DNA of 43,789 bases, from the IMG/VR virus record IMGVR_UViG_2623620497_000008, positions 1-43,789 of that record; one strand, given 5' to 3'. Made by a program: the position numbers and the translations under genes. Position 1 is the stretch's first letter, and each line of letters begins with the position of its first letter. The notes under the pieces are model-generated. The model had not been told where the DNA came from. It saw only the letters and a list, made by a program, of their open reading frames with translations, and did not search any database. The DNA comes from a virus. Lineage: Duplodnaviria; Heunggongvirae; Uroviricota; Caudoviricetes. Positions 26,530 to 28,643 of the stretch are shown here, one piece after another.

Positions 26530-27065
26530 AGCACGCGCTCCTTAACCCAGCCGTAGAGGAACTCCTCGTTGGCTTCGCGGCCCTCCGCCAGTTCGAGGTA
26601 TCTGGCGCCCTGGCTGCAGTTCAGCGCACGTAACAGAACCTGTTCCCCCTCTTTCCCGCGGGCTGAAAGATATCCCTTAAGCGCAGTGATGGTTCGGGGG
26701 CCAATGGCGCCATCCGGGATCAGATCGGGATACAACTTCCCACGCATGTTAAGGGCAGTGAGCCAGCGCTGGAAAAACTTAATTGCAACCGATGGCCCCA
26801 TGTTCACGCCAGTGTCGCAAAGCTCATCTGCCAGTAACGTAGATAAACTTGCCACCTGATCGAATCGGGGGCCGGTCCAGTAATCGCTGAGCAGAATTTG
26901 CTTTGCTGTTTCCCTGGGCAGGTTTCTCATATCACCGGTGTAACCATGTGCTCGAGCTGTGGTCTGCGTGATGCCCCAGCGGGTCGGCCCGCCTTTATCC
27001 GACGGATGATCGACATAACCGCCCTCTTTGCCGAGGATCCCCTCGATAGTCTGGTCTGCTTTCAT
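26526..27065 (-). CDS. endolysin, GH108-type muramidase with C-terminal peptidoglycan-binding domain
   Basis: N-terminal EGGYVDHPSDKGGPTRWGIT motif characteristic of GH108 lysozymes; ATG overlaps the holin stop. Confidence 0.7.
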   Translation of the reverse strand: MKADQTIEGILGKEGGYVDHPSDKGGPTRWGITQTTARAHGYTGDMRNLPRETAKQILLSDYWTGPRFDQVASLSTLLADELCDTGVNMGPSVAIKFFQRWLTALNMRGKLYPDLIPDGAIGPRTITALKGYLSARGKEGEQVLLRALNCSQGARYLELAEGREANEEFLYGWVKERVL

Positions 27066-27373
27066 TGTGCTTTCACTCCGGTGATTCGTTCCCAGAAATA
27101 CGTGAGCGCTACGGAACCCATAGCACCACTGATACCGGCAGTGGCCAGTATCATGTAAATACTCAGGCCACCTTCAATGCTGATGAGCCCACCAATAACC
27201 CCGGTAAAAGCCGAAACCACAATCTGCGCAAAAGCATTTATCCAGCTCCATTTTGCTTTGCCCTGCTTTACGTCCATCAGGAATCGGACAAGGCCGCCCC
27301 AACCAGCAATGATCAGCAGAACCAGCCAGGACATCCCGGCAATGCTCTCTTTGTCTTGCATACGCTTAGCCAT
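27062..27373 (-). CDS. holin with dual-start motif (MAKRM)
   Basis: 103 aa, TM helices, GGAGG SD; first gene of the lysis cassette. Confidence 0.65.
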   Translation of the reverse strand: MAKRMQDKESIAGMSWLVLLIIAGWGGLVRFLMDVKQGKAKWSWINAFAQIVVSAFTGVIGGLISIEGGLSIYMILATAGISGAMGSVALTYFWERITGVKAQ

Positions 27374-27474
27374 AGTTACCGCCTCCGATGAAAGATCGGG
27401 AAGCTGTGTGTGAGAAGGTCAGGGCCGTCGGGCTGATTTACCAACAAAGCGTCGAGGGTGATTCCCGCGACCCT

Positions 27475-27504
27475 GAAAATAAAAAAGCCTGCGGTTAGGC
27501 AGGC
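27475..27504 (-). terminator. terminator-like hairpin (GCCUGC-CUAACC-GCAGGC + U6AUUUU) upstream of holin
   Basis: Inverted repeat 27487-27504 with A6 27481-27486 on plus strand. Confidence 0.4.
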
Positions 27505-27638
27505 AATAAGTATGAGGGTAATAGCAATGTCGGTGATGACCGAAAATACCCAGGCTTGGTCTGGCGGCCTGTGACGCTGTTGCAGCAGCGCCCCTGATGG
27601 ATTGGATTATGAGCCCGTCATCAGGTCAGGCCATTATT

Positions 27639-27713
27639 TGGCGGGACAGGAAGGATTCGAACCTTCTACCATTCGGTTAACAGCCGAACGCACAACCGCT
27701 GTGCTTCTGACCC
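27639..27713 (-). tRNA. tRNA-Asn (anticodon GUU), phage-encoded
   Basis: 75-nt cloverleaf read by eye: acceptor GGGUCAG/CUGUCCC (one U-U mismatch), D-stem GCAC/GUGC, anticodon stem UUCGG/CCGAA with loop CUGUUAA, T-arm GAAGG-UUCGAAU-CCUUC, discriminator G, encoded CCA. Confidence 0.7.
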
Positions 27714-27720
27714 TGAAATG

Positions 27721-27747
27721 AAAAAGCCCAAGGCGTTAACCTCGGGC
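27721..27747 (-). terminator. terminator-like hairpin (GCCCGAGG-UUAACG-CCUUGGGC + U5) immediately 5' of the tRNA; candidate tR'-like element
   Basis: Inverted repeat 27726-27747 with A5 27721-27725 on plus strand. Confidence 0.4.
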
Positions 27748-27816
27748 TTGAATTCTTTATGTGTCGACAATCGAAGCTATGGCGACGATATCAGATTTAC
27801 ATGAAATATATGCCTT

Positions 27817-28506
27817 TCAGTTCGGTTTTGCAAGACTTACATCTAAATTTGACGCCTTTTGTTGTGAACGTGATCGCGTTACCGCCATGAGAGCGTCGCT
27901 ATCAAGCTTCACAAAACTGCTGCGCAGCGCCAGCCAATGAGGGAGGTAGGTTTCTGTCCATGTGGACTTTGCTACACCAACCAGCTCCGCCAGCGACTGG
28001 TATTCATACGTCTCCCGTCCTGCCAGCTCGGCTTTGACGTCCTGTGCGGCCAGCCAGATAAGTTGACAGAGGCGATCGACTGTTTTCTTTGCAATGCGCA
28101 CACCGGCCAGCTTGTCGCTGAATTGCTCCCATGCCCAGCGGGTTATCGTCTCCTGGTGCTCCCAGCGGATATTGTCGCTGTAGTTCCACAGCAACCAGGA
28201 TTTCTGGTGGTCTTCCAGCGACAGGAGGGCGCGACGCCAGCTGGCTGTCGAGTATTCAACGGGCAGAACGAGAGCGATTGAGGAACCCTTAGCGCGGGAC
28301 TGGCTGCCGCTCATCGGCGGTCCATCCGGGTTAACCATTTTTTGCTTCACCTCGCTATATACCTTCTTCCGGCCACGGCTGCGCGCCGTAGCGGTAAATT
28401 GCGCGTTCTCTGCAAGAGCTACCAGTTGCCCTTTCGTCGCACCACTCAGATCGGCGGTGGCCACTATCAGCTGCTGGCGAACAAATTCCAAGTATTGAGC
28501 TGTCAT
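27817..28506 (-). CDS. Q: late gene antiterminator Q-like protein
   Basis: 229 aa; position between the nin-like region and the lysis cassette. Confidence 0.6.
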   Translation of the reverse strand: MTAQYLEFVRQQLIVATADLSGATKGQLVALAENAQFTATARSRGRKKVYSEVKQKMVNPDGPPMSGSQSRAKGSSIALVLPVEYSTASWRRALLSLEDHQKSWLLWNYSDNIRWEHQETITRWAWEQFSDKLAGVRIAKKTVDRLCQLIWLAAQDVKAELAGRETYEYQSLAELVGVAKSTWTETYLPHWLALRSSFVKLDSDALMAVTRSRSQQKASNLDVSLAKPN

Positions 28507-28643
28507 GCTGCTTCTCCCAGGCGCTTATAGATACGGACGAAATTGCGTAATATTTTGTAGTCGACCAGCACGGTGCCGCGGCTACGCAGGAGGCGAAGCT
28601 TTTGCCAGCGGTCGCGGATGCGTTCGATAACGTCACGGCTCAT
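28503..28643 (-). CDS. small basic ORF (46 aa) translationally coupled between rusA and Q
   Basis: ATGA overlaps at both ends; not in the ORF track (short). Confidence 0.3.

Follow-up and report, generated by a model that had tools for sequence, protein, structure and literature searches.

What occupies the gap between the antiterminator gene Q and the holin gene of a lambdoid prophage when no toxin gene lies there? The question is raised by positions 27374..27816 of the IMG/VR record IMGVR_UViG_2623620497_000008, a virus of the Caudoviricetes, whose full length of 43,789 nt (43.8 kb) is called the window here; its late strand is the minus strand (-). A preliminary description of this gap had recognised a transfer RNA gene, tRNA-Asn(GUU), and two terminator-like hairpins followed by the same U-rich leader, and had taken the second copy of that leader to run into the 5' end of another tRNA gene, since deleted or decayed. 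The present analysis gives a different account of the second copy, which belongs to a conserved RNA hairpin, designated E2. Read along the late strand, the order is Q, a PR'-like promoter, an isrJ-like RNA with its terminator tR', tRNA-Asn, a tRNA-like RNA (TLS), a short trailer, a second terminator (terminator 2), E2, the holin gene and the gene of a GH108 endolysin. As a cargo cassette the locus is ordinary, since lambdoid late-operon leaders that carry tRNAs are known and this is one of them. The complete explanation, in which the interval is the late-operon leader of a lambdoid prophage and carries a small non-coding cargo cassette, is considered probable when all of its parts are taken together.

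E2 comprises 58 nt (27476..27419, -), UCAGGGUCGCGGG-AAUCACCCUCGACGCUUUGUUGGUAAAUCAG-CCCGACGGCCCUGA, which fold into a 14-bp stem with a 1-nt bulge (A) and a conserved loop of 33 nt (…GCUUUGUUGGUAAAUCAG…). The stretch that had been read as a tRNA 5' end, GGGTCGCGGG, is the 5' strand of this hairpin. RNAalifold predicts the stem, and relatives of the window carry divergent yet complementary strands at this place (CCCAGACCCUCGGG/CCCGCAGGGUCUGGG, UCAGGACCGCGGG/CCCGACGGUCCUGA and UCAGGCUCACGGG/CCCGAUGAGCCUGA). Among 30 distinct variants, 97% of the cells are paired, against 24–49% when the partner strand is slid by 1 to 3 columns, and six pairs show changes on both sides. The cells with G·U outnumber those with A·C by 63 to 2, and by 110 to 13 in a second sample; this excess speaks for an RNA with the late-strand sequence, as opposed to a cruciform in the DNA or an antisense RNA. 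A covariance model of E2 (R1) scores 87 bits at 27477..27412, and the same model, run with all filters off, finds no second copy in the window (the next best match has E=0.32).

The distribution of E2 was followed in two sets of loci, and the counts of E2 and TLS homologues, which derive from scans of IMG/VR and GenBank, are lower bounds. The first set contains at least 111 loci that match the E2 pattern (from IMG/VR, GenBank and the window), in which tRNAs were scored over 2 kb upstream; 27 of them have no tRNA within that distance, and the others have one to four tRNAs of eight specificities. The second, independent sample consists of 80 loci drawn by way of the holin protein: E2 is present in 64, at 35–41 nt ahead of the ATG, and most of the remaining loci have a shorter E2-like hairpin. 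The element is found behind three unrelated kinds of Q (PF06323, PF03589 and an unclassified Q) and ahead of at least four holin leaders and several holin types. Judged from this arrangement, E2 appears to mark the 5' boundary of the lysis cassette, whichever Q lies before it and whichever of these holins follows.

Neither E2 nor TLS has a match in Rfam 15 (cmscan over 27300..27900, E<=10), and cmscan over 27405..27640 returned noise only, with a best E of 1.3 and 17.7 bits against a gathering score of 55. At both places GenBank and RefSeq records hold either no feature or a spurious “hypothetical protein”, and a search of the literature found no description of a tRNA-like or hairpin element at this position; E2 and TLS are candidate new RNA motifs. 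The small open reading frames on the plus strand that overlap the trailer and E2, and that are called “hypothetical protein” in some phage records, were rejected as spurious because conservation follows the RNA pairing. The stretch itself is widespread: positions 27405..27640 are 100% identical in many complete E. coli chromosomes, among them those of WCHEC035148 and FDAARGOS_433, and matches to them occur in 126 of 5426 complete E. coli genomes, 28 of which reach at least 99% identity. In identical E. coli prophages the Prokaryotic Genome Annotation Pipeline (PGAP) gives Q, tRNA-Asn, the holin and GH108, arranged as in the window, and leaves the gap otherwise unannotated. The closest deposited phages are temperate Klebsiella phages, several of which have an annotated tRNA-Asn.

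The upstream half of the interval has the arrangement of a lambdoid late promoter region. Q (27817..28506, -) encodes a protein of 229 aa of the phage 82/Gifsy-1 AntQ type (Pfam PF06323, E=9.5e-82), 57% identical to the Q of Gifsy-1 (STM2617). The -35 element of a PR'-like promoter (27805..27833, -; TTGCAA, a 17-nt spacer and TATATT) overlaps the 3' end of this gene, and a consensus scan of 27000..28600 found no other sigma-70-like site. The promoter is kept together with isrJ in Gifsy-1. Immediately downstream, positions 27801..27723 (-) match the Rfam model of isrJ (RF01393) over model positions 1–75 of 75, with 57.1 bits against a gathering score of 37. The 3' hairpin of this model is tR' (27724..27749, -), an intrinsic terminator with an 11-bp stem that includes six G-C pairs, followed by the U-rich tail TTTCATTTCA. 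The element corresponds to the short transcript that runs from PR' to tR', an analogue of the 6S RNA of lambda and of StxS. Such short RNAs are general among lambdoid phages, in which PR' is constitutive and the transcript ends at tR' unless Q modifies RNA polymerase (PMC7547250). IsrJ has been detected in Salmonella as an RNA of about 74 nt that is encoded in Gifsy-1 (PMC4825925; 10.1101/787010).

The window and Gifsy-1 share the promoter, the 5' part of isrJ and the terminator architecture, with a homologous Q upstream; the sequence of the terminator hairpin differs. They also differ in that isrJ abuts Q in the window, whereas Gifsy-1 has an isrK/C4-like RNA and an orf45-anrP module between Q and isrJ. 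Because isrJ directly follows Q in the window and in the Klebsiella phages with a homologous Q, the comparison suggests that the role of PR'-tR' leader RNA belongs, for this type of Q, to IsrJ and not to IsrK. In Gifsy-1 the Rfam family c4-a1b1 covers isrK, with the C4 antisense RNA just downstream and ahead of orf45-anrP (L005 1684-1882 and 2533-2607), and isrK-orf45-anrP looks like a module of the P1/P7 immI type (c4-icd-ant) inserted between Q and isrJ.

The tRNA gene begins 10 nt past tR' (27639..27713, -). It is 75 nt long, has G as the discriminator (27642) and an encoded CCA (27641..27639), and carries the anticodon loop CUGUUAA. ARAGORN calls it, as tRNA-Asn(gtt), and calls no other tRNA in the window; the Rfam model RF00005 matches with 61.4 bits (gathering score 29) over model positions 1–71. 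The canonical tRNA-Asn(GUU) reported earlier between Q and the holin thus stands, and the tRNA finder accepts its structure. The identity set recognised by asparaginyl-tRNA synthetase comprises the anticodon GUU, U33, A37 and the discriminator G73. All of these are present in the phage tRNA, with GUU in a 7-nt loop and a 3' CCA. A consensus scan found no separate promoter between tR' and tRNA-Asn, as is expected from a tRNA that begins 10 nt after the terminator. The gene is not new: identical E. coli prophages and Klebsiella phages have it in their annotation already. No open reading frame of 40 aa or more is present on the late strand from Q to the holin, so protein cargo is absent from the interval and, with it, any toxin gene, as the preliminary description had stated.

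Six nucleotides (GAUAAU) after the CCA of tRNA-Asn begins TLS (27562..27632, -), a 71-nt element with the sequence GGCCUG-A-CCUGAUG-ACGGGCUCAUAAUCCAAUC-CAUCAGG-GGCGCUG-CUGCAA-CAGCGUC-A-CAGGCC-G-CCA. A second tRNA had been suspected at what is now E2, where none was found; a tRNA-like element is present here, in a form that lacks the D arm. An acceptor-like stem of 6 bp (GGCCUG/CAGGCC) is followed by GCCA; a single nucleotide separates this stem from a long arm that ends in GGG-CUCAUAA-UCC, and a third hairpin has the loop CUGCAA. The minimum free energy fold is a three-way junction (z = -3.1), with which RNAalifold agrees over 28 variants. TLS is tRNA-like without being a tRNA, since it has neither a D arm nor the T-loop consensus and is called neither by ARAGORN (relaxed and mitochondrial modes) nor by the Rfam tRNA model. 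The likeness is greatest in the apical hairpin: CGGGCUCAUAAUCCAA resembles the anticodon arm of the E. coli initiator tRNA, CGGGCUCAUAACCCGAA, and the corresponding stretch CGGGCTCATAATCCAA can be set against CGGGCTCATAACCCGAA of E. coli metZ. Among relatives, homology starts after the preceding CCA and GAUAAU and stops immediately past RCCA, where at least five continuations with no relation to one another take over. TLS comes and goes in the manner of a tRNA cassette; it is in one relative (L017) and missing at the same joint from another (L106).

These features raise the possibility that TLS is simply a pseudo-tRNA-Met in decay that serves no function. It sits where a cassette of a tRNA array would sit, with a 6-nt spacer before it and RCCA at its end; it is 71 nt long, has an anticodon-like CAU in its loop and is rejected by the tRNA finders. 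Its covariation is also thin, with double changes at only two pairs and an acceptor-like helix that is invariant in the 28 variants. Decay, however, would hardly leave 98.7% of the cells paired across those variants (35–55% in the slid controls), nor a nearly invariant internal loop and a nearly invariant 7-nt loop, YUCAURN, on a GGG/YCC stem. The same two-hairpin core recurs, moreover, with wholly different closing stems. One of them, in L130, is GGGCUC/GAGCCC; this copy lies directly before the holin gene and scores 28.6 bits. The other is an 18-bp stem with no CCA, whose representatives score 38–46 bits with the model. Of 5426 complete E. coli genomes, 2490 contain this long-stem variant, in up to five copies each; it is unannotated and has no Rfam match, and its spread points to selection on the core. 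Decay to a functionless relic is, on balance, a somewhat unlikely explanation of TLS.

The long-stem variant has the form AAAACAGAGAAGAGCA…CCGGACGACGGGCUCAUAACCCAAUCCAUCCGG-GCGGCUGCCACCGC…UGUUCUUCUCUGUUUUG and was located at L210 3365-3438 (-), at about 80 other IMG/VR loci (L210-L318) and, for example, at 2993340-2993433 of the E. coli genome NZ_AP018488.1. The L210 copy lies in the early region, directly 3' of an STnc100-like RNA and between genes for a cI-like repressor and an integrase. L130 also has, at 2300-2500, a divergent E2-like hairpin (GCCAGA…GCUUUGUCGUAAAUCA…UCUGGC), followed by its TLS homologue, in which the acceptor-like stem and the long arm covary.

Two known systems come close to TLS. 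The species 1 and 2 RNAs of phage T4 are stable tRNA-like RNAs encoded in phage tRNA clusters, and the thrS operator mimics a tRNA anticodon arm. TLS resembles them in its place at the end of a phage tRNA array, in its acceptor-like stem ending in RCCA and in its hairpin like an anticodon arm; it differs in having no sequence relation to them, no D arm and no T-loop consensus, and in that its core also occurs on an 18-bp stem with no CCA. A bolder proposal is that TLS is one member of an extensive and hitherto undescribed group of prophage RNAs that mimic the anticodon arm of the initiator tRNA (GGG-CUCAUAA-CCC) and act as a decoy or ligand, with E2 as a second new element of lysis control. 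The target would be a factor that recognises tRNA-fMet or CAU, for example a VapC-type toxin that cleaves tRNA-fMet, methionyl-tRNA synthetase or the ribosomal P site. As a joint statement about both RNAs and their targets, this is decidedly improbable.

What the phage gains from tRNA-Asn is a separate matter. Asn codons make up 48 per 1000 in the late genes and 41.8 per 1000 in the early genes, and the explanation preferred here is that the tRNA adds to Asn decoding late in infection. It might instead mainly replace a host tRNA that is depleted or cleaved by tRNA-targeting defences or toxins. The tRNA sets of the slot change among otherwise similar phages (Asn, Arg-UCU, Thr-UGU, Phe, Gly-UCC, Met/Ile-CAU and Ser), and turnover of this kind is more readily understood as an arms race than as the outcome of a stable codon bias; the excess of Asn codons in late genes is, furthermore, small. 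Nevertheless, no defence system aimed at tRNA-Asn was identified in this analysis, and the phage loop CUGUUAA is the same as that of the host tRNA-Asn, so that it would offer no escape in sequence from an anticodon nuclease. Replacement as the main role is therefore judged unlikely, and supply of an additional elongator tRNA is retained.

The other part of the question concerns the duplicated leader. The pattern TTTTYATTTN{0,1}CAGGGTC has exactly two matches in the window (27724..27709 and 27485..27469), both on the minus strand and one for each of the two terminator hairpins that a consensus scan places at 27749..27724 and 27504..27487 (-). None of 100 dinucleotide-preserving shuffles contains the pattern, and zero matches are expected by chance, so the repeat is not a chance match. 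The two hairpins and the U-rich leader ending in CAGGGUC after each of them were thus correctly described; what has to be reversed is the direction of the duplication. Copy 1 (27709..27725, -; TTTTTCATTTCA|GGGTC) includes the initial 5 nt of the tRNA, and copy 2 (27469..27486, -; TTTTTTATTTTCAGGGTC) continues into the 5' strand of E2. In most of the holin-sampled loci the context is GGCC-TTTTTCATTTCAGGCTCACGGG ahead of an intact E2 (in fuller form, GGCCTTTTTCATTTCAGGCTCACGGG); ahead of tRNA-Asn the window has GGGC-TTTTTCATTTCAGGGTCAGAAG (in fuller form, GGGCTTTTTCATTTCAGGGTCAGAAG). The leader before tRNA-Asn equals the E2 leader plus the first bases of the E2 stem, and divergence begins at the body of the tRNA. 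A tRNA-Asn of the type found in the window always has this leader, with a terminator hairpin ahead of it that is of at least four different kinds, and the motif is present twice solely in loci that have such a tRNA.

The simplest reading of these joints takes copy 2 as the intact 5' edge of E2 and copy 1 as a truncated E2 5' stub, since the leader of tRNA-Asn equals the canonical leader followed by the first stem bases of E2. Copy 1 would then be the scar, a mosaic joint, of the insertion of a cassette at GGGTC by short-homology recombination, and the tRNA-Asn cassette may have arrived with its own trailer, terminator and E2. Terminator 2 (27487..27504, -), the presumed end of the cargo cassette and a putative insulator ahead of the lysis genes, has a 6-bp stem with five G-C pairs and a run of six T residues (TTTTTTATTT). 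It is separated from the tRNA by a 134-nt spacer and from the holin gene by a leader of about 110 nt. At its position, relatives have at least five different hairpin sequences, from which it follows that the mosaic joint lies in the U-run; a T-run stands directly upstream (within 16 nt) of 61 of the 64 E2 copies in the holin-sampled loci. Splicing at the edge between the U-run and E2 would explain why the motif is duplicated and why the tRNA sets of similar phages change so rapidly.

It could be argued that the shared leader, AUUU(U)CA|GGGUC, is a functional signal selected independently at the two sites, for example an AU-rich context for cleavage by RNase E or RNase P, which would free the 5' ends of the tRNA and of E2, the latter as a tRNA-like minihelix substrate. 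The leader is indeed kept before tRNA-Asn behind at least four terminators and before E2 behind at least five, and in most cases N-CC (ACC, CCC, UCC or GCC) comes after the E2 stem of about 14 bp. A related hairpin, E1, which heads the tRNA arrays of relatives, combines a 12-bp stem with a 3' ACCA, and the first tRNA starts 4–5 nt beyond it. RNase P, in addition, cleaves hairpins that are not tRNAs, such as the precursor of 4.5S RNA and the C4 RNA of phages. On the other side, the 3' flank of E2 in the window is CCUU and not NCCA, the leader bases UCA are paired in the E2 stem, which is unfavourable for RNase P, and the cleavage is hypothetical. Selection on the leader as a signal has a low probability in our estimation, and it and the scar are not mutually exclusive; the insertion scar is preferred.

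E1 lies outside the window (L002 1460-1625, L003 1545-1628, L016, L043 and L047) and heads the arrays with the 12-bp stem UCAGGGCUCUUG…CAAGAGCCCUGA. The ends of its stem are like those of E2 (UCAGG…CCUGA-NCC), a likeness that hints at a shared processing or recombination signal.

With regard to its role, E2 would most likely be an element of processing, stability or translation control of the lysis mRNA, a proposal made with low confidence. RNase III processing sites are described for the late leader of lambda (Daniels et al., 1988, as cited in PMC7547250). The likeness to E2 is that both are structured elements in a lambdoid leader between PR'/tR' and the lysis genes; the difference is that the lambda sites have no sequence relation to E2, as far as this can be checked, and that the 14-bp stem of E2 is short for RNase III. 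The possibility that E2 is a promoter, a site for integration host factor or a Q-specific (qut-like) site was rejected, as no consensus fits, the three Q families are unrelated and the G·U bias points to RNA. A search of the window for a complement or a repeat of the conserved loop (<=3 mismatches) matched the loop itself alone, so there is no obvious partner in cis or antisense. A scan for the loop over one genome per species gave a single match, in Salibacterium, which is taken as chance because that host is unrelated; the scan is uninformative on host range.

Alternatively, E2 could be a third weak intrinsic terminator or pause hairpin, that is, an extra barrier to Q-independent expression of the lysis genes, instead of a processing or stability element. 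In most variants a G+C-rich stem precedes a pyrimidine- or U-rich tract (CCUUUU, CCUCUUUUCC), and E2 is always part of the terminator stack upstream of the holin. A terminator, however, would have no need of a 33-nt loop that is strongly conserved in sequence; the U-tract of the window is poor (CCUUCUC), and the terminator scan does not call E2. This makes a terminator quite improbable, and E2 is discussed below as an element acting on the lysis mRNA.

The notion that terminator 2 and its leader once preceded a second tRNA gene, of which GGGTCGCGGG would be the surviving 5' end, can be set aside as highly improbable: the leader is the same as before the real tRNA, both types of phage tRNA-Asn begin with GGGTC and the slot holds up to four tRNAs in relatives, but the 58 nt form a structured hairpin with covarying strands, which is kept before the holin in the 27 tRNA-free loci and in 64 of the 80 holin-sampled loci (the opposite of decay), and no tRNA model scores there, since ARAGORN in its normal, relaxed and mitochondrial modes (-ps80, -ps60, -mt, -mtmam and -mtd) finds no tRNA at 27470..27404 and only spurious antisense calls in the interval, and the Rfam tRNA model at E<=10 over 27300..27900 finds nothing apart from the real tRNA-Asn.

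Several observations weigh against the proposed explanation of the locus. The match of the PR'-like promoter to the consensus is modest (9/12). The acceptor stem of tRNA-Asn contains a U4·U69 mismatch (27710 and 27646), and the enrichment of Asn codons in late genes is slight. The independent covariation events of E2 are few, because only about five lineages contribute to them. Phage Mulock (L002 2100-2165) and L057 have a chimeric E2, whose 5' strand is of type A and whose 3' strand is of type B, so that the outer stem is broken; because Mulock propagates, viability does not depend on the stem, and the chimeras indicate that recombination occurs inside the conserved loop. Finally, an “empty site”, in which a tR' of the isrJ type would abut E2, was not found among the loci fetched, and the insertion scenario rests on the sequence joints. 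One locus (L134) considered as a cargo-free architecture was rejected, other cargo being present in it. The U·U mismatch is also seen in the copies of tRNA-Asn in Klebsiella phages.

The slot between tR' and E2 is variable in content. Over the 2 kb upstream of E2, the pattern-matched loci have no tRNA, Gly(UCC), Asn, Asn-Arg(UCU), Met/Ile(CAU)-Arg, Thr(UGU), Asn-Phe-Thr-Arg or other combinations, and the cargo of relatives comprises zero to four tRNAs, STnc100, small open reading frames and a homing endonuclease. In some Klebsiella phages STnc100 (Rfam, 85–90 bits) lies between tR' and tRNA-Asn (L001 1760-1952; L050 1976-2170), and small RNA genes of several kinds thus gather in the Q-holin gap. 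In Klebsiella phage RothC (L208 1462-2001) the homing endonuclease gene follows tRNA-Arg and stops right at the 5' edge of E2, which is further evidence that the joint is an insertion hot spot. Many relatives also have, between the tRNA arrays and E2, a conserved and apparently non-coding module of about 300–400 nt (…CAACAGGTAAGAGCATTGAG…GTGCTCTTTCCGTTGTGGTGAATGCGTAGGCTGATACG…); it was seen at L003 2030-2400 and, about 400 nt upstream of E2, in L035, L053, L098, L116 and L124, and it has no Rfam match at gathering thresholds.

The preliminary description had also equated this slot with the interval that holds the toxin genes in Shiga toxin (Stx) phages. The annotated slot of 933W contains ileZ-argN-argO and stxA2B2, and that of Gifsy-1 contains isrJ, tRNA-Arg and gogA. 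In both, as in the window, Q is followed by the late promoter and terminator(s), by one or more tRNAs on the late strand, by further terminator(s) and then by the holin, with variable cargo. In contrast to them, the window has no toxin or other protein cargo, its tRNA is of another specificity and no separate tRNA promoter was found. Its Q belongs to PF06323, whereas that of 933W belongs to PF06530. BLAST of the interval against the region between Q and S of 933W gave only matches of up to 12 nt at E>0.1, that is, no significant similarity; against the Q-to-holin region of Gifsy-1, only the isrJ part is shared. No Stx phage is among the 43 and 47 phage hits listed. Since the 933W interval is not similar and the Q families differ, the link to Stx phages appears to be one of position only: the place and the order of the slot agree, and the sequence, the toxin gene and the family of Q do not.

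The stretch between TLS and E2 may have a parallel of its own. The trailer (27505..27561, -) consists, in its minimum free energy fold, of a small hairpin and the single-stranded stretch AUUGCUAUUACCCUCAUACUUAUU, and it is kept after TLS or a tRNA in many loci. Together with terminator 2 it may form a small RNA (sRNA) of about 80 nt (27561..27481, -), and it resembles an Hfq-type sRNA cut from a tRNA transcript. PasA and PasC are sRNAs of enteropathogenic and enterohaemorrhagic E. coli prophages whose 3' ends lie at an intrinsic terminator that immediately precedes the holin-lysozyme operon, and PasA is cut from a longer transcript (bioRxiv 10.64898/2026.05.13.724894). The trailer and terminator 2 of the window have the same position and layout, a likeness of arrangement; an indirect check, of the window interval against the whole Q-to-S region of 933W including the part upstream of S, gave no significant BLAST match. 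E2 itself is not an sRNA of the Pas type, because it lies downstream of the terminator. The single-stranded UACCCUCAU of the trailer is complementary to a Shine-Dalgarno and start region of the form AUGAGGGUA.

Between E2 and the start codon lies a leader specific to the holin (27374..27418, -), in which a small hairpin, CCGAU…AUCGG, is located over the Shine-Dalgarno sequence GGAGG. This segment varies with the type of holin and E2 does not. The holin of the window (27062..27373, -) belongs to the LydA family (Pfam PF16083, E=1.5e-21) and is followed by the GH108 endolysin and further late genes. It begins with the dual-start motif Met1-Ala-Lys-Arg-Met5 (27373..27359, -), typical of holin/antiholin pairs, of which PGAP annotates the Met5 start alone in an identical E. 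coli prophage.

A sequence of events can be proposed for the late transcript. As is indicated by homology, PR' at the end of Q would give rise to the isrJ-like RNA of about 79 nt, which would stop at tR'. Once Q is made, and by analogy with the lambdoid Q mechanism, polymerase would pass tR' and transcribe tRNA-Asn, TLS, the trailer, terminator 2, E2, the holin, the endolysin and later genes. From this transcript tRNA-Asn would be excised, to serve as an elongator tRNA that adds to Asn decoding late in infection, and TLS is probably excised too. Terminator 2 would stop the Q-independent leak past tR' before it reaches the lysis genes. E2 might then act on the late mRNA through processing, protection of its 5' end or control of translation, a last step that is put forward tentatively.

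The presence of tRNA genes between Q and the lysis genes of lambdoid prophages is well known. What is added here is that an apparent dead tRNA is a conserved, covarying hairpin which opens the lysis cassette behind three unrelated families of Q; that cargo cassettes appear to be spliced in at the U-run and the first bases of the E2 stem; and that the slot also contains a tRNA-like RNA, so far missing from annotations, with a core that is found very commonly among E. coli prophages. Should either RNA be functional, it would provide a new handle on the timing of lysis or on the conflicts between phage and host over tRNAs, and it would be relevant to prophage induction in clinical lineages of E. 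coli and Klebsiella.

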